Source of the DNA: a virus
Taxonomy: Duplodnaviria; Heunggongvirae; Uroviricota; Caudoviricetes
Virus record (IMG/VR): IMGVR_UViG_3300050026_000241
Strand: one strand, 5' to 3'
Length of the DNA stretch: 64,000 nt
Part shown: positions 26,388-64,000 of the stretch, piece by piece
Layout of the letters: each line of letters opens with the position of its first letter
Numbering within the stretch: position 1 is the first letter of the stretch
Notes under the pieces: generated by a model
Databases searched by the model: none
The model's input: the letters and a program-made list of their open reading frames with translations, nothing else
What the model was told of the DNA's origin: nothing
Position numbers and translations under genes: made by a program

Positions 26388-27779
26388 TCAAATGACCAAG
26401 CCAATACCTAGAACAACCCCGCAATCGGCTTTTGCCACTATCCAGGGCGACTTGTCGCCATATTGGAATGACAAGTGCCGCGCGTTGCAATCGCGCCTCT
26501 GGTGCCCAACCGAGAATGATTGCAAAGTGTTGTTCGATTCTTCGGAGTTCATTGAGCGTGTTGCCTCACCGTCTGCCGGAGATTTGTGCCCGTCGTTTGT
26601 ACTTCCCGCTCTATCTGGCGAGCGACCCAAGGAAAAGGAAGTTAGCCGTAAGATAAGGCTCTATCCGAAGAACTTGGAGAAGTGGGAGGAATGTTTGTGG
26701 GCGGCTCGTCGGGCCTACAACCTCGCTATTGAGGCTTTCAAGGAATGGAAGAAGGATGTGCCGAGCGAGGCAGATAACCAATCCGCCTTTCGCCGCTCAA
26801 TCCGTGAAAAGGTAGCGGCTGAATTTCCCGGTGTGCCGCGCGTAATGCTTGACGAAGCGGTCAACAGCGCTTACCTCACACGGCAAGCCATCATTAAGAA
26901 AAGATCGCAAGGTGAGCAATGCGACTTTTCCTTCCGTTGCCGGAAGGACACGAAGCAATCGTTTGTAGTTGAGAGGCTTGCGAACGGTGGGCCGTTTCCA
27001 ACCTTTCTGAAATGCCATCTTACCGAGGCGATTCCGAGCGAATCTGCCGGGAAAATGGCGGTTGTTGTGCGAGAGCATGGTAGATGGTTTCTGACGTGTA
27101 AGGTCAAGGTGCCGGTTGCTGCCGAGAGCCAAGGTAGGAAAACCGTCGCTTGCGACCCCGGCGTAAGAACTTTTCTCGCTACCTACTCTCTTAGTGATTG
27201 TGCGTTTATCGGCCACGGCTTTGCCGCCAAGATACGACCAATGCTCTTGCAGCTTGATAAGTTGCTTGGGCGGCGGAAGTGCTTGAGCAACATCAAGGAA
27301 TGGAAGCAATGTCACCGGGATAGGAACCGTAACTTGCAAAAGCGAATCGACTCGATCTTTTGCAAGGTGCAAGACTTGATGGACGATCTGCACCGGCGTG
27401 CGGCCGATTTTCTCACAAAGAACTTCGACGTGATTTTGCTTCCGACATTTGAGACTTCCGAAATGGTTTCCAAGAGCGCACGCAAAATTGGTAGCCGCTC
27501 CGTCCGGTCGATGCTATCCCTTGGTCACTATCGCTTCAAGCAATTCCTGATTTGGTCGGCCTACAAGCGTGGCAAGATCATAGTGGATTGCAGCGAAGCG
27601 TGGACCACATGCACCGACTCCCGAAGCGGTGTGATTATTGATGTTGGTTCAAGGGAATGGATCAACGGACTTCACAGGGATGTAAACGGCTCGCGGGGTA
27701 TTTTCCTCCGAGCGATGGCGGCTTGAGCCCGAAACATCCCCAGCAAACGCTACAAAATGTTGCGTTTGTTGCGTTTCAA
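26364..27779 (+). mobile_element. TnpB-only transposon-like unit bounded by inverted repeats
   Basis: left TTGAACGCAACAAACGCAACAT (~26364-26385) vs right ATGTTGCGTTTGTTGCGTTTCAA (~27757-27779), 22/23 match; tnpB fills the interval. Confidence 0.5.
26392..27726 (+). CDS. tnpB: TnpB-like RuvC-fold nuclease (IS200/IS605 OrfB family)
   Basis: RKIRLYPKNLEKWEECLWAARRAYN; RuvC-I KTVACDPGVRTF; RuvC-II LLPTFETSEM; RuvC-III HRDVNGSRGI; zinc finger degenerate. Confidence 0.75.
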   Translation: MTKPIPRTTPQSAFATIQGDLSPYWNDKCRALQSRLWCPTENDCKVLFDSSEFIERVASPSAGDLCPSFVLPALSGERPKEKEVSRKIRLYPKNLEKWEECLWAARRAYNLAIEAFKEWKKDVPSEADNQSAFRRSIREKVAAEFPGVPRVMLDEAVNSAYLTRQAIIKKRSQGEQCDFSFRCRKDTKQSFVVERLANGGPFPTFLKCHLTEAIPSESAGKMAVVVREHGRWFLTCKVKVPVAAESQGRKTVACDPGVRTFLATYSLSDCAFIGHGFAAKIRPMLLQLDKLLGRRKCLSNIKEWKQCHRDRNRNLQKRIDSIFCKVQDLMDDLHRRAADFLTKNFDVILLPTFETSEMVSKSARKIGSRSVRSMLSLGHYRFKQFLIWSAYKRGKIIVDCSEAWTTCTDSRSGVIIDVGSREWINGLHRDVNGSRGIFLRAMAA

Positions 27780-28540: not shown

Positions 28541-28547
28541 TTTCCGC

Positions 28548-36143: not shown

Positions 36144-36171
36144 TTGACTTCTCTGAAAAGGATGCTATGAT
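36144..36171 (+). promoter_or_regulatory. sigma70-like promoter cassette (duplicate copy with doubled -35)
   Basis: GTTGACTTGACT...TGcTATGAT; followed by truncated copy of 36523 gene start. Confidence 0.45.
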
Positions 36172-36295
36172 TGAGTATGGACACAACCAAGAACCGACAG
36201 CGTGACGCCTACACCTTCGCCTACACCTTCGCCAACACCAACCTGTTGGGTCGGTCCACTTTTCCAAATGGCTCAACTAGACCTGGGAGATTGAT

Positions 36296-36493
36296 ATGCA
36301 CGAAGTTGAATTTGTAAGCGCCCGATACCTGGAAATGGCCGCCGCGCATCCGGGCCTGATTACCAGAAGCCGCCCGGTAATGATCGAACGGCGGATACTC
36401 GACAGGCGAACGACCGACCGGCGCGAAGTTGACCGCTGCGATTCAGTAGCACAACTGCTACGGGCCGCCTTTCCCGAATTCGGCCGCGCTTGA
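36296..36493 (+). CDS. hypothetical protein
   Basis: 65 aa; lies between the duplicated promoter/5'-end copies. Confidence 0.4.
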   Translation: MHEVEFVSARYLEMAAAHPGLITRSRPVMIERRILDRRTTDRREVDRCDSVAQLLRAAFPEFGRA

Positions 36494-36517
36494 CTTCTCC
36501 GAAAAGGATGCTATGAT
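36490..36517 (+). promoter_or_regulatory. sigma70-like promoter cassette
   Basis: leaderless ATG 36523. Confidence 0.6.
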
Positions 36518-36522
36518 TGAGT

Positions 36523-37368
36523 ATGGACACAACCAAGAACCGACAGCGTGACGCCTACACCTTCGCCAACATCAACCTGTTGGGCCGGTGCAACTGTGAT
36601 TGTTTCTTCTGCTTGGGTAAGGATATTCCCGAGCTATTACAGCAACATGACCAGCGGGCCGTCCACTTTTCCAAGTGGCTCAACTGGTGGGCCTTCCTTC
36701 GTCGCTGCTGTGACGAGGGTGTGTCCAAGCTGTACGTCACCGGGCAGAACACCGATTCATTACAGTACGTCCACTTGCAGGAATTGATCGACTTCCTGCA
36801 TCGCCAACGCTTCCAAGTCGGGCTGCGGACCAACGGCTATCTCGCATCAAAGCGGCTGGCCGTAATCAACAGCACTGACCTGAGCGTGGGCTACAGCATC
36901 CATTCGATCATCCCGGCCACGACCAGGGCCATTCTCGGTCGAAGCGACATTCCCGATTGGGACATGCTTCTCACCGAGACCGAACGGCCGCGCGTGCAGA
37001 TCGTCGTCAATCGCTACAACAAGACCGAATTCTGGCCGCTGCTTGAGCACATCGCCAGCTTCCCAAAGGTCCGCTACGTTCAGGTGCGGCGGGTTTGCTC
37101 CGACACGCGAGAGCCCGAGTTGACGCCGGACATTGAGGCACACGACCGGCTGCATGACGAAGTTCGGCAACTCTACCCGCTCAAGAAGATCATCTACGGA
37201 AGCGCGGAAGTCTACAACATTTACGGCAAGGAAGTAGTCTTCTGGCGCACGGTCAAGACAACGGCCAACTCGCTCAACTACTTCACGGACGGCACCGTGA
37301 GCGACCAGTATTTCATTGTGGAGGGCTACCAGAAATACTGCGGCCGGGAGTGCGCCAATGCCAACTGA
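36523..37368 (+). CDS. radical SAM protein
   Basis: cassette promoter, leaderless; CNCDCFFC (CxxxCxxC). Confidence 0.7.
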   Translation: MDTTKNRQRDAYTFANINLLGRCNCDCFFCLGKDIPELLQQHDQRAVHFSKWLNWWAFLRRCCDEGVSKLYVTGQNTDSLQYVHLQELIDFLHRQRFQVGLRTNGYLASKRLAVINSTDLSVGYSIHSIIPATTRAILGRSDIPDWDMLLTETERPRVQIVVNRYNKTEFWPLLEHIASFPKVRYVQVRRVCSDTREPELTPDIEAHDRLHDEVRQLYPLKKIIYGSAEVYNIYGKEVVFWRTVKTTANSLNYFTDGTVSDQYFIVEGYQKYCGRECANAN

Positions 37369-37594
37369 CCGTCCAACTGATCGACCGGAGCGCCAGACTG
37401 AGCTACTGAGCGCGCCAGGCGCTAATCAACCGGCGCGCCAGGGAAAACCAGAATTTGTTGGCGCGCTAGGCGAACTCGGTTCCGAGATCGACTGGTCGCG
37501 CGAGCCGGAGACACGAGTATTCGATTCGGTCTTGTGGACCCTTGCCGACGCCGAGCAAGTCACCTACGGCGGCCTAACCTTCTGGCATCCATAG
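37358..37594 (+). CDS. hypothetical protein
   Basis: repeat PTDRPTDRP; 3' half coincides with dispersed GGCGCGCC-containing repeat, coding status uncertain. Confidence 0.3.
   Translation: MPTDRPTDRPERQTELLSAPGANQPARQGKPEFVGALGELGSEIDWSREPETRVFDSVLWTLADAEQVTYGGLTFWHP
37378..37470 (+). repeat. dispersed element ACTGATCGACCGGAGCGC...GGAAAACCAGAATTTGTTGGCGCGCTAGGCG (copy 1)
   Basis: copies at ~43343-43380 (partial) and ~63584-63645. Confidence 0.5.
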
Positions 37595-38690
37595 TCACGA
37601 ACCGTGTAAACCGTGTAAACGTCTTGTGTAAACGTCGCCACCGCTACCGGCGACCGTCAGCGGCCCTGTTACTGAACGGATTCCCGTTCGGGAATAGGGC
37701 CGTTTTCATTGCGCAGTGAAATGCGCATTTGTGTAACGCCCGTTAGAAAAGTCAGCCGCGTTTTAGACTATAAGCATCAGTGATACTGGCAGGCTGCGGG
37801 TGGGTGAAGTTGCCGTCAGAGCGACTACAGGAACCGGACATAACCGGACATGCCAATGACATAAACCGGACACGCCAATGAGACAGTTATGGCACTTATG
37901 AGCCATGTTCACGAAACCGGCTTCGGGCATCGGGCGGGTAAAGGCCGGAGCTAAGGGCCAGGTCAGGCTCCGGTTAAATCGAAACCGAAAAGTCAAAACT
38001 TGGCCCTCGCGCGCCACGGTTACTAAGGGCGCGGGCCCTCCCCGGACAGCTTCCGGTGAAAACGGAAACCGATTTTTCAAACTTGGGGAGTTTTTTCTCA
38101 CGGTTAAAATGACCCGGGTGGCCTCCCTCTAACGGGGGTCAGCCACCACCCCTGTCTTGGCCGGTGCTACCGTCACGACCCTTCCGAGCACCCCCGGTCG
38201 CTACATCCCTCGCCCACGGCCCCGCACAGGCGCTCCAGACAGTCGCCTTGGAGTAACCGTCATAACCGGACTCTGGCTGCGCAGTCCCGGCCAGCGGTTT
38301 GCGGGGAGTTTCAAAGCGGCCATTGAAGCGGCCATTGAACCGGCCCTGGCCCCTGGCTTCGCGTAGGACAGGCGAAAACAGCGGGGATAGCCGGGAAGTC
38401 AACCAGCGGATGAAAGCGGCCAAAACAGCGGCCAAAGGCCCTATCAGGGGCTGGTGCGGGGCAGAGTTTGATTGCTTCAAAAACATGGACGCCGGGGAAA
38501 GGTTTTCTATGTCTTCCGGCCTGTTGCGTATCTTAATTATGACAGCCAATTCGCAGAAGTCAAGGATTATTCCAAAGAATCCGGTTGCCGGGCGCGAGTC
38601 GAAGTCAAGCGGGAATCTGAAAATAGTTTTCCGGCTGCGTTTTTGGCGCTTATATTGCGCGCTTTCGCGCGATGTCGAATTCGCCGGCCG
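37595..38690. other. ~1.1-kb repeat-rich noncoding block
   Basis: no credible + strand ORF; internal direct repeats (CGTGTAAAC x3, AACCGGACAT/GCCAATGA x2, GGCCATTGAA x2) and many GC hairpins. Confidence 0.5.
38060..38110 (+). repeat. dispersed noncoding element AAACCGAATTTTTCAAACTTGG...TTTTC..TCACGGTT (copy 1)
   Basis: related copies at ~43950-43995 and ~55930-55995; partial at ~37960-38000. Confidence 0.5.
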
Positions 38691-38694
38691 CGAC

Positions 38695-38722
38695 TTGACT
38701 TCTCCGAACCACATGGTATGAT
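38695..38722 (+). promoter_or_regulatory. sigma70-like promoter cassette
   Basis: leaderless ATG 38729. Confidence 0.6.
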
Positions 38723-38728
38723 TGCAGT

Positions 38729-39040
38729 ATGAGCGAACCAATTTACGCAATACCGGGCACCAGAATCATCGGTGCAAAATTGTCAGTCGGCACGACCCTC
38801 CGGGTCCACGGCTGGATCATGCTGAAAAACCTTGACGAAGGCGATTACGTCATTACGTCGGTCGGTTACTTCTACAACAATCCTTGCTACACCTTTCGCA
38901 AGGCGCGGGGCCGCAAGCGGGTTTGCTGCCACTTTGCCAATGACGTTGACCGTTGCGTCCGCCCGGCCGGCGACATCGACCTTAACAGGATTGAGATATT
39001 GGCCGTTGGCGAGCGGCGGCCGGTCGAAATCCCGGCTTGA
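38729..39040 (+). CDS. hypothetical protein
   Basis: cassette promoter, leaderless. Confidence 0.55.
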   Translation: MSEPIYAIPGTRIIGAKLSVGTTLRVHGWIMLKNLDEGDYVITSVGYFYNNPCYTFRKARGRKRVCCHFANDVDRCVRPAGDIDLNRIEILAVGERRPVEIPA

Positions 39041-43342: not shown

Positions 43343-43468
43343 GCCGGCGCGCTAGGGACTGATCGACCGGCGCGCTAGACAAAACAAGAGTGACCCTGTT
43401 GTGTGGCCGGGGCCTGCAAGCATCTACTCACTTGCGGCCCCGGCCCTCTGAATTACCCTGTTGCGATT

Positions 43469-46550: not shown

Positions 46551-47111
46551 ATGAGCAACGGGACAGCGACCATTGAAGCGACCATTGAACGGATTGCGGC
46601 CGAATTCCAGACAAGGAAACCGGCTAATTATCAGTTTGACGCCTTTCAAAAGTACAAAAAGGCGACAGCCTTGCGGGAGGGGAAAGTTGCCCCGGCCGCA
46701 CCCGCCGCTTTCGACCCGGCAACAGTCAAGGATACTCGCAAGCAAACCTTTACAACGCAACGCGACGGGCAAGCCGAGTTTCGCAAGCAACTGATTGCGG
46801 CATACGGCGGCAAGTGTGCCGTCACTAGCAATAGGGTTGAGGCTATTTTAGAAGCCGCGCATATCACCCCTTACAAGGGTGAGGATTCAAACCACGTTAG
46901 CAACGGCTTGCTTCTATCTGCCGAGTTGCACATCCTTTTCGACCGGGGCCTGATTGCCATTGACCTATCGGGTTGCCTTCTGGTTTCCTCTAAGCTAACG
47001 GGAAGCATTTACGAAAGCTACAAGGGCAAGCGAGTCGCAATGCCGGTTGACCCGGCGAATCGACCGAGCCGCAAGGCACTTGACCGACACCGAGAAACTT
47101 TCATACCCTGA
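46551..47111 (+). CDS. HNH endonuclease (HNH_2-type)
   Basis: GGKCAVTSNRVEAILEAAHITPY...NGLLLSAELHILFDRG. Confidence 0.6.
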   Translation: MSNGTATIEATIERIAAEFQTRKPANYQFDAFQKYKKATALREGKVAPAAPAAFDPATVKDTRKQTFTTQRDGQAEFRKQLIAAYGGKCAVTSNRVEAILEAAHITPYKGEDSNHVSNGLLLSAELHILFDRGLIAIDLSGCLLVSSKLTGSIYESYKGKRVAMPVDPANRPSRKALDRHRETFIP

Positions 47112-55934: not shown

Positions 55935-55995
55935 CTCCGGTAAAATCGAAAACCGAATTTTCAAACTTTGGCCCTTTTCCTTCACGGTTGCGCAC
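55930..55995 (+). repeat. dispersed noncoding element (copy 3)
   Basis: CGAAAACCGAATTTTCAAACTTTGGCCCTTTTCCTTCACGGTTGCGCACACCC. Confidence 0.5.
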
Positions 55996-63274: not shown

Positions 63275-63380
63275 ACAAGCCGCCGCCAACTATCCGCAAG
63301 GCTTGTCAATCAGACACGAAAACGACACGCCGACAGCGTATTGATTACTGATTACTGATTACTGATGCCAGAAGGTAGAC

Positions 63381-63554: not shown

Positions 63555-63583
63555 ACCCCGGCGACCGGCGCAACCGGGCCACT

Positions 63584-63645
63584 GATCGACCGGAGCGCTA
63601 GGCGCTAGGAAAACCGGAATTTGTTGGCGCGCCAGGCGGAATCGA
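63584..63645 (+). repeat. dispersed element (copy 3)
   Basis: ACTGATCGACCGGAGCGCTAGGCGCTAGGAAAACCGGAATTTGTTGGCGCGCCAGGCGG. Confidence 0.5.
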
Positions 63646-63825
63646 AAACCCCGGCAAATCCGGCACAATACCACCAGCGCGTTTACACGCTCTTTCTTCA
63701 CGCCGCCCGAAGTTTCCGTCGATGCCCGGGACTTGACGCCCGGCCGACGCCCGCCGGCACCCATGCCCGGCAGATCGAAACCGAGCGCCCGGACTCTGCG
63801 AAAAATGGAACACGGTTGATAAGGC

Positions 63826-64000
<175 letters not shown>

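Follow-up and report, generated by a model that had tools for sequence, protein, structure and literature searches.

In a 64,000-nucleotide (nt) stretch of DNA from the viral record IMGVR_UViG_3300050026_000241 (the whole stretch is called the window here), a repeat-rich block of 1.1 kb at positions 37595–38690 lies between two co-directional gene arms. We favor, with roughly even confidence, a reading in which several conserved parts combine here into a control region of an uncultivated large phage, with the block acting as a transcription boundary and a switch between the two arms. The block is neither a single element nor wholly non-coding. We infer the boundary and the switch from terminators, from promoters recognized by family resemblance and conservation, from an array of short motifs, and from a long leftward open frame.

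A conserved block between two gene arms

The + strand carries every sizeable open reading frame (ORF) of the window. Once three non-conserved weak ORFs are set aside, the gene-free gap on this strand spans 37595–38728, a length of 1134 nt compared with 298 nt for the runner-up. Codon statistics trained on the genes of the window itself gave no coding signal in any frame at 37370–38300 and weak, ambiguous signals at 38300–38560. The first-pass annotation had singled out the block as the only long stretch without a plausible + strand ORF, and both measures agree. The + strand ORFs at 37905–38132, 38157–38366 and 38410–38721 were rejected as genes, as relatives show stops and frame-breaking indels in them, and neither Pfam nor PHROGs returned a match for any ORF in the block.

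The two arms differ in their promoters. A promoter cassette of the form CTTGACTTCT-N-CACATGGTATGATTG is present in ~42 near-identical copies on the + strand (for example at 38695, 40372, 55087 and 62560). Cassettes are sparse before 36 kb and recur every ~500–700 nt after 38.7 kb, with ~9 copies in the 38 kb left of the block and ~34 in the 25 kb to its right, so the earlier description of an operon-style region separated from a promoter-dense one is roughly right. The first cassette of the promoter-dense arm (38695–38728, + strand) leads directly to a leaderless ATG at 38729. By a crude test, ~14 genes begin 4–8 nt past the −10 element and are likewise leaderless; others carry a C/A-rich leader, CAACGCAACAGGGAG. 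Coding-strand GC skew is about zero or positive from 0 to 38 kb and steadily negative from 38.7 to 64 kb, despite the uniform gene direction, and the shift in slope falls at the right edge of the block.

Diverged relatives came from three kinds of search. The upstream neighbor of the block (36523–37368) is a widespread radical-SAM enzyme, and its closest homologs led to contigs L009–L012, which share the left part of the block. A DNA pattern made from the most conserved string led to L013, while four of the five metagenome pattern matches were chance. Protein searches with two candidate ORFs added L018, L019, L020, L022, L023, L024 and L028. Several metagenomes also hold identical or near-identical contigs, and those that are 100% identical to the window gave no comparative information. 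L013 is syntenic across the whole block, with 69% identity within it and 85–88% in the flanking genes. In the combined alignment (A4), the elements of the block stand in identical order in six diverged metagenomic lineages, and some islands are better conserved than the flanking genes. Just upstream, in the space that separates the radical-SAM gene from the small ORF bordering the block on the left, relatives hold 0–3 extra genes. The shared order in six lineages thus marks the block as a conserved unit; the DNA just upstream is a mosaic.

Broader searches were empty. A megablast against 50,697 phage records gave zero matches, IMG/VR gave none for either flanking protein or for any of three DNA patterns, and two genome-collection scans covering 185,579 reference genomes found neither a similar sequence nor a prophage; since both scans were empty, they offer no lead to a host or prophage.

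The comparisons bear directly on the possibility that the block is a recombination hotspot, an attP-like site or a mosaic scar, in which the repeats would be arm sites for a recombinase or directionality factor, or functionless leftovers. The 0–3 different genes inserted upstream in relatives are in keeping with it, as is the right half of the block, which carries motif copies known elsewhere in the genome. So is contig L009 (1–13483, NCBI JBLFKV010077196.1), a different element that encodes an integrase, a resolvase and a 959-aa DUF5906 protein. Besides the radical-SAM gene, it shares only the left half of the block, from the small ORF through the hairpins and terminators to the core boxes, and its homology ends at ~37968, at an 11-nt repeat. 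However, order and motifs are the same in six lineages, and a scar would not show islands more conserved than the flanking genes. Moreover, the window has no integrase, and neither split copies nor prophages appear in the 185,579 genomes. We consider this explanation unlikely. The suggestion of a module boundary survives in part: relatives differ by 0–3 inserted genes immediately upstream and L009 stops midway, but the block itself is a conserved unit and not a scar. The alignment to relatives that had been proposed as a check gave the same divided answer, with gene indels just upstream and the block order kept in six lineages.

Terminator hairpins and an array of AACCG motifs

The left end of the block combines short repeats with hairpins. 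Three ACCGTGTAAAC-type units lie at 37603–37633 (+ strand), where the first-pass annotation had listed a CGTGTAAAC repeat, and relatives have 1–3 copies. The exact 9-mer CGTGTAAAC is present twice and the third copy reads TGTGTAAAC; the shorter GTGTAAAC occurs at 37604, 37613 and 37626 and totals 7 copies in the window compared with 1.25 expected. Directly downstream is stem-loop 1 (37634–37654, + strand; GTCGCC-ACCGCTACC-GGCGAC), whose stem covaries while its CGCTAC loop is kept. Three pairing variants are seen: GTCGCC/GGCGAC, GTCGTG/CACGAC in L009, and CACGCC(G)/(C)GGCGTG in L018.

Two terminator hairpins follow. T1 (37659–37710, + strand) has the fold of an intrinsic terminator, with a long GC-rich stem at 37659–37704 and the U tract GTTTTCATT next to it, and compensatory pairs support it; RNAalifold identified a compensatory GGCTC/GAGCC change in L023. 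T2 (37710–37733, + strand) is a terminator-like hairpin at 37710–37727, TGCGCA-GTGAAA-TGCGCA, followed by TTTGTG, and other lineages carry a different hairpin at this position. Across the terminator hairpins, RNAalifold found compensatory change at 10 of 26 pairs, and the segment 37655–37750 folds at −45.4 kcal/mol (z = −6.0). T1 and T2 thus have the features of intrinsic terminators, a GC-rich stem-loop followed by a U tract, with compensatory changes in relatives. From these signals, the pair is predicted to end the upstream operon. Hairpin 1 was also considered as a terminator of the leftward transcript described below and was set aside, its folds being weak (z −0.75 to −2.0).

In the cro-nutR-tR1 region of phage lambda, an intrinsic terminator is immediately preceded by a nut stem-loop. 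Stem-loop 1 resembles this arrangement in its covarying stem and conserved loop, 5 nt before a strong operon-end terminator, and differs from it in that neither a boxA-like sequence nor an N-like antiterminator was identified. Stem-loop 1 could be a lead toward a nutR-like element or, equally, an RNA 3′-end stabilizer or a weak leftward terminator. Beyond T2, the conserved combination of CGTTAGAAAAGTCAG, a variable spacer and TATAAG (37741–37774, + strand) is not a canonical promoter, because its spacing differs by 8–18 nt between lineages.

RNA structure does not extend much further. Structure beyond chance is limited to 37600–37760 (z = −3.9, single sequence); the many GC-rich hairpins of the first-pass annotation are real there, but elsewhere the block folds no better than chance. 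This speaks to the idea of a structured RNA, raised in the same annotation, whether the block is taken to encode one large non-coding RNA or a number of small ones. The long stretch without a + strand gene, the inward-pointing promoter and the left-end hairpins would suit such an RNA. Rfam, however, gave no match, either at its gathering thresholds or with the cutoff relaxed to E ≤ 10; beyond 37600–37760, folding z-scores are unremarkable; compensatory changes are confined to the terminator hairpins with none in the core; and indels and copy-number changes are tolerated throughout the block. A large structured RNA was rejected on the missing Rfam match and the lack of covariation outside the terminators, and we regard RNA explanations as a whole as highly improbable.

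Downstream of the hairpins, ~370 nt are conserved as sequence, not as RNA structure, and are organized around the pentamer AACCG; conservation at 37790–38111 is high without any contribution from base pairing. AACCG is the most enriched pentamer of the block (11 copies compared with 1.8 expected, P = 3e-6), and nowhere else in the 64 kb does it cluster as densely. The pentamer is common to the GTGTAAAC units, to the AACCGGACA boxes of the core, and to both halves of the bipartite elements A and B. Its copies are not independent, as these motifs are themselves duplicated.

The core (37793–37907, no strand assigned) contains GCTGCGGGTGGGTGAAGTTG, the AACCGGACA boxes, a duplicated 22-nt unit and GAGACAGTTATGGCACTTATGAGCCATG, and it provides invariant columns in alignment A4. 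The three AACCGGACA boxes, at 37832, 37842 and 37864, are the only copies in the 64 kb. They stand 10 and 22 nt apart, two to three of them are invariant across lineages, and they form the most conserved columns anywhere in the block. The 22-nt unit, which contains GCCAATGA (repeat family D4), is duplicated in five of the eight covering sequences. Among 29 predicted pairs in the core, none shows compensatory change, and the covariation term is unfavorable. Farther right, at 37953–37973 (no strand assigned), lies the degenerate remnant of a tandem repeat of GGCCCAAGTCA, with ~1.5 copies here and from ~2 to ~8 in relatives. As the unit is 11 nt long, these changes in copy number alter the length of the DNA while keeping its helical phase.

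The array ends in two bipartite elements. Element A (37970–38028, + strand) reads CCGGT.AAATCGAAACCGA-N5-CAAAACTTGG-N11-CACGGTTACTAAGG and is kept in all covering lineages. Element B (38051–38111, + strand) is a tandem copy of A, 84 nt downstream, and includes what the first-pass annotation had called a dispersed element: AAACCGATTTTTCAAACTTGG at 38066, which recurs with two mismatches at 55950 (0 expected) and in a related form at 37976 (family D3). The general form of the 60-nt element is CCGGTGAAAATCGAAACCGA-N5-CAAACTTGG-N11/12-CACGGTTA. In homologs it is always a tandem pair. A third copy (C), at 55935–55990, follows a stop codon and precedes the next ATG (56018), and a degenerate fourth copy is found near the contig end. 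Across the 64 kb, AACTT-N12-17-CACGGTT has three matches, all on the + strand, whereas 0.1 would be expected. The repeats listed by the first-pass annotation were all recovered where it had placed them and exceed chance expectation.

No conserved RNA fold was found in the region of A and B (alifold z about −1.2 to −1.8). A, B and C fit a two-block promoter format, AACTT-N13/14-CACGGTT, on the + strand only and in all lineages. The AAC-N17/18-CGG spacing is at the long end for promoters of extracytoplasmic-function (ECF) sigma factors. Compared by eye with the sigma-54, sigma-28, IHF, DnaA and SPO1 late-promoter consensus sequences, A and B gave no convincing match.

The boxes and repeats to their left have the spacing of a Cox/Apl/Xis-type array, in which direct repeats stand 10–11 bp apart: the boxes are separated by 10 and 22 nt and the tandem unit is 11 nt. 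No cognate small DNA-binding protein or integrase was recognized among the ORFs of the window, the majority of which lack an assigned function.

A shortened partial paralog of the block, at 63573–63830, adjoins the contig end. It contains a CTGATCGACCGGAGCGCTAGG...TTGTTGGCGCGCCAGGCG segment, an inverted CGTGTAAACG at 63680 and ATCGAAACCGA...CACGGTTGATAAGG at 63774–63825, and has 47 8-mers in common with the block, compared with 7 ± 4 in controls.

A packaging (pac) site or genome-end sequence would account for phased 10–11-nt repeats, which the small terminase subunit could wrap, and would make the motif copy at the contig end a terminal structure. That copy, with its GCGCGCYAGG segment, inverted CGTGTAAACG and degenerate A-like element, does stand beside a contig end that finishes in CCCCG repeats and poly-C. 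But neither the window nor the 8.6 kb upstream contains terminase or structural genes, contigs from many samples continue through the block, and the poly-C run is more likely an artifact of sequencing or assembly. We give packaging, one of the first-pass candidates, little credence.

A leftward promoter and a long open frame

The right end of the block carries a promoter that points the other way. The phage-type sigma-70 promoter CTTGACTTCTGCGAATTGGCTGTCATAAT (38536–38563, − strand) was assigned by family match and conservation. It agrees with 10 of 12 consensus positions and has a TG extension, with TTGACT, a 16-nt spacer and a TATAAT-like −10 element, and it also has the extended CTTGACTTCTGCG motif of the other cassettes. 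It is the sole good minus-strand copy, compared with ~42 on the + strand, and is nearest to the + strand promoter at 28547 (87% identity). All seven sequences have a complete leftward promoter, either 49–51 or 226–263 nt upstream of a conserved ATG. The transcription unit predicted from it is the only leftward one in ~72 kb. An inverted −35-like box, GAAGTCAAG, lies at 38601–38609 (− strand); it has no −10 element in the window and is part of a full leftward promoter in L013 and L022.

Downstream of the leftward promoter is a 115-codon open frame (38139–38486, − strand), the only leftward ORF with a promoter of its own. The label of noncoding given to the block in the first-pass annotation therefore holds for + strand genes, of which there are none, but not for 38139–38563, which this promoter and frame occupy. 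In seven sequences from six lineages the frame spans 115–142 codons and contains no stops, whereas the other five frames have 1–8 stops each; L013 and L023 were found independently of the leftward ORF. In a neutral simulation of substitutions only, the probability that the frame stays open was 0.07–0.17 per lineage. Every indel in the frame is frame-preserving. It is not the shadow of a + strand gene, a reading ruled out because all + frames contain stops.

The statistics usual for proteins do not follow. The ratio of nonsynonymous to synonymous substitution rates (dN/dS) is 0.37–1.31 in the frame, compared with 0.78–1.95 in shifted-frame controls and 0.07–0.08 in the flanking genes, and the frame does not show the purifying selection expected of a protein-coding gene. 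GC content at the first, second and third codon positions (GC1/2/3) is flat, at ~0.65/0.64/0.70, compared with 0.55/0.44/0.70 for the genes of the genome, and the codon log-likelihood is weakly positive. Pfam and PHROG searches with the frame gave no match, and its relatives among 1.84 billion proteins are six clade-restricted representatives. AlphaFold modeled the 115-aa product with a predicted local distance difference test (pLDDT) score of 52 and one confident helix, at the N terminus. The ATG lacks a Shine-Dalgarno motif, and in L028 the C-terminal half of the frame is replaced. The noncoding label is thus partly right: a frame is open in six lineages, but it lacks the statistics usual for protein-coding genes.

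We judge that the frame is probably translated, with slightly better than even confidence. The sequence of its product probably matters little past the first ~75 residues, and the act of transcription or translation itself may be the role.

Inside the frame, the doubled GGCCATTGAA at 38318–38339 (family D1) reads GRFNGRF. The segment 38315–38340 has 92% identity over 26 nt to 46565–46590, and both contain the doubled 12-mer AGCGRCCATTGA, which encodes GRFN on the minus strand in the block and ATIEATIE (+ strand) in the first codons of an HNH_2 gene.

To the right of the promoter is a near-invariant 34-nt segment, TTTTGGCGCTTATATTGCGCGCTTTCGCGCGATG (38641–38674, no strand assigned), with the palindrome GCGCGC-TTTC-GCGCG. 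It is centered ~64 nt upstream of the leaderless start of the next gene, and its sequence looks like that of a candidate operator or activator site. This segment is the reason that a 103-aa ORF is called on the + strand at 38410–38721; the open stretch varies from 39 to 151 aa among lineages and its start is not conserved. In public contigs identical to the window at 38410–38721 (L001–L007), gene callers place this spurious 103-aa + strand protein over the promoter and candidate operator, and in L004 alone a 191-aa minus-strand ORF is called instead.

A proposed boundary and switch, or a possible origin of replication

Taken as a control region, the block would work as follows. Rightward transcription of the left arm would meet stem-loop 1 and the two terminators (37634–37733), and T1 and T2 would insulate each arm from transcription of the other. 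The repeats, spaced ~1–2 helical turns apart, may be where one or more sequence-specific DNA-binding proteins assemble, in an array that may be likened to the Xis/Cox/Apl type or to an initiator type. The leftward promoter stands back-to-back with the palindromic segment and the first right-arm promoter, and its transcript would start with the 115-codon frame and then run into the motif array. If A and B are a second class of promoter, they would fire rightward against the leftward transcript, and such a convergent-transcription switch would time expression of the right arm and of the leftward unit.

Several points weigh against this reading. What argues for it are signals read from the DNA. 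In the window, no gene was recognized for a regulator, repressor, recombination-directionality factor, sigma factor or RNA polymerase, and the scan of its 147 ORFs likewise found no terminase, capsid, initiator or integrase gene. A and B are putative promoters, and just one of the three copies, C, precedes a gene. Scans of sequence and fold gave no convincing site at which the leftward transcript would terminate. Evidence on whether the leftward frame is coding conflicts, with an open frame on one side and failed coding statistics on the other. Finally, a long gap, phased repeats and transcription into repeats would also suit a replication origin.

A transcription-activated origin is the main rival, a possible explanation to which we give limited weight. 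The AACCG boxes and 11-nt repeats would be iterons recognized by a phage initiator, and the leftward transcript or one from A/B would open or prime the DNA. Such an origin would be at home in the longest non-coding stretch of the window, in its unique cluster of direct repeats ~1–2 helical turns apart with variable copy number, and among tandem duplicated elements; a conserved promoter fires into the repeats through an ATG that has no ribosome-binding site and a frame without amino-acid constraint, and the GC-skew slope changes at the right edge of the block. However, a search of the block for DnaA boxes (TTATCCACA, ≤1 mismatch) found none, no AT-rich unwinding segment is present (minimum GC 0.47 per 100 nt), and no initiator, primase or helicase gene was found across the window and the 8.6 kb preceding it. 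Cumulative GC skew, a check put forward in the first-pass annotation, has a plateau or maximum at the block instead of a minimum, over the part of the genome that is visible. A purely non-coding origin transcript would also leave the openness of the frame in all lineages unexplained. The first-pass candidate of an origin thus keeps its cluster of direct repeats but lacks DnaA boxes, an AT-rich stretch, a skew minimum and an initiator gene.

A related and similarly tentative possibility is a replication origin or developmental switch that acts by convergent transcription, built from a host-type leftward promoter, a frame that would have to be translated or stay open although its amino acids barely matter, the AACCG array and two tandem promoters of an undescribed class, CAAACTTGG-N11/12-CACGGTTA. 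To our knowledge, an arrangement of this kind has not been described for large virulent-type phages.

Known systems share parts of this architecture. In the primary origin of T7, the promoters phi1.1A and phi1.1B stand in tandem ahead of an AT-rich region. The block resembles this origin in having two tandem promoter-like bipartite elements in intergenic DNA; by contrast, the spacer of A and B is variable as in sigma-factor promoters, whereas the T7 promoter is a contiguous 23 bp, no phage RNA polymerase was seen, and the DNA downstream of A and B is GC-rich (0.63–0.70). Iteron origins, such as lambda ori and those of iteron plasmids, likewise have a unique cluster of short, helically phased direct repeats, but the repeats of the block are 9–11 nt compared with 17–22 nt, and the block has no adjacent initiator gene, unwinding element or DnaA boxes.

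The origin (ori) of the Ceduovirus lactococcal phage c2 is non-coding and promoter-flanked, and a transcript without a ribosome-binding site is needed for replication (PMC7150918). This precedent favors an origin. Like the c2 ori, the block is the largest non-coding region between gene blocks, is flanked by promoters and has one predicted transcript without a ribosome-binding site; it also shares the c2 feature of being variable yet functionally conserved within the clade. In c2, however, the gene blocks diverge, whereas both arms are co-directional here, and the block has a 115-codon frame kept open and no AT-rich segment.

Turning back to the control region, a parallel is the switch of P2 and 186, in which pR and pL are face-to-face and Apl/Cox-type regulators bind direct repeats 10–11 bp apart between the opposed promoters (PMC7498355). 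In the block, too, repeats ~1 helical turn apart lie between opposed units, their copy number varies, and the DNA is conserved as sequence and not as RNA structure. The block differs in that its opposed signals are ~400–550 nt apart compared with 40–60 bp, in that no Cox/Apl, repressor or integrase gene was found, in that the rightward partners A and B are putative promoters, and in that the phage shows no sign of being temperate.

The surroundings of the block contain features of their own. Its left neighbor is a small 78-aa ORF (37358–37594, + strand), outside the non-coding part. The ORF is open in ~9 sequences with in-frame indels, has a dN/dS of 0.3–0.6 compared with 0.9–1.4 in shifted frames, and has a GC1/2/3 of 0.71/0.51/0.60. 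It holds four GCGC(G)CYAG repeats, members of a dispersed family, CTGATCGACCGG(A/C)GCGCYAG / GCGCGCYAGG, found at 37376–37470, 43347–43389 and 63582–63636. The four copies have ~23-nt spacing and lie in differing codon phases, and two more copies are in clearly intergenic DNA; from the mixed phases and the intergenic copies, these repeats appear to act at the DNA or RNA level, not as protein. Upstream, 36144–36258 and 36490–36592 are 87% identical, the cassette and the first ~25 codons of the next gene being duplicated, and several short-read contigs end at 36538, right after this duplication.

Recognizable genes of the window are accessory: several DNA methyltransferases, HNH nucleases, a Thg1-like enzyme, radical-SAM enzymes, an RNase T-type exonuclease and a TnpB-like protein. 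Most ORFs have no assigned function, and no tRNA or tmRNA genes were found. The TnpB/Cas12f-like ORF lies at 26392–27726 (PHROG transposase, TNB domain), and a population variant, L001 (3–1070), has a different TnpB-like gene at another position. The differing positions of the two genes suggest mobile IS200/605-type elements in the phage population. A perfect tandem repeat, (TGATTAC)x3-4, occupies intergenic DNA at 63341–63366, ahead of the last ORF. The final segment, 63815–64000, has GGCCGCCCCG-type repeats and then more than 100 nt of poly-C, which is probably a sequencing or assembly artifact at the contig end and less likely a physical end of the genome. Because it starts inside a gene and finishes in CCCCG repeats and poly-C, the window is the end of a longer contig.

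In sum, the block belongs to a familiar class, the intergenic control regions of phages, and is an uncharacterized case assembled from ordinary parts. Two features stand out: the AACCG array with A and B, and a frame kept open without protein-like constraint. For annotation, the block holds two cautions: a spurious 103-aa + strand call can cover regulatory DNA, and a truly open leftward frame can fail standard coding statistics. Annotation of large uncultivated phages mostly proceeds one gene at a time, and very little is known of their control regions. The region described here is conserved and well delimited, and its terminators, unique leftward promoter, phased motifs and putative second class of promoter are parts from which a search for the origin or the temporal switch of this clade can begin.

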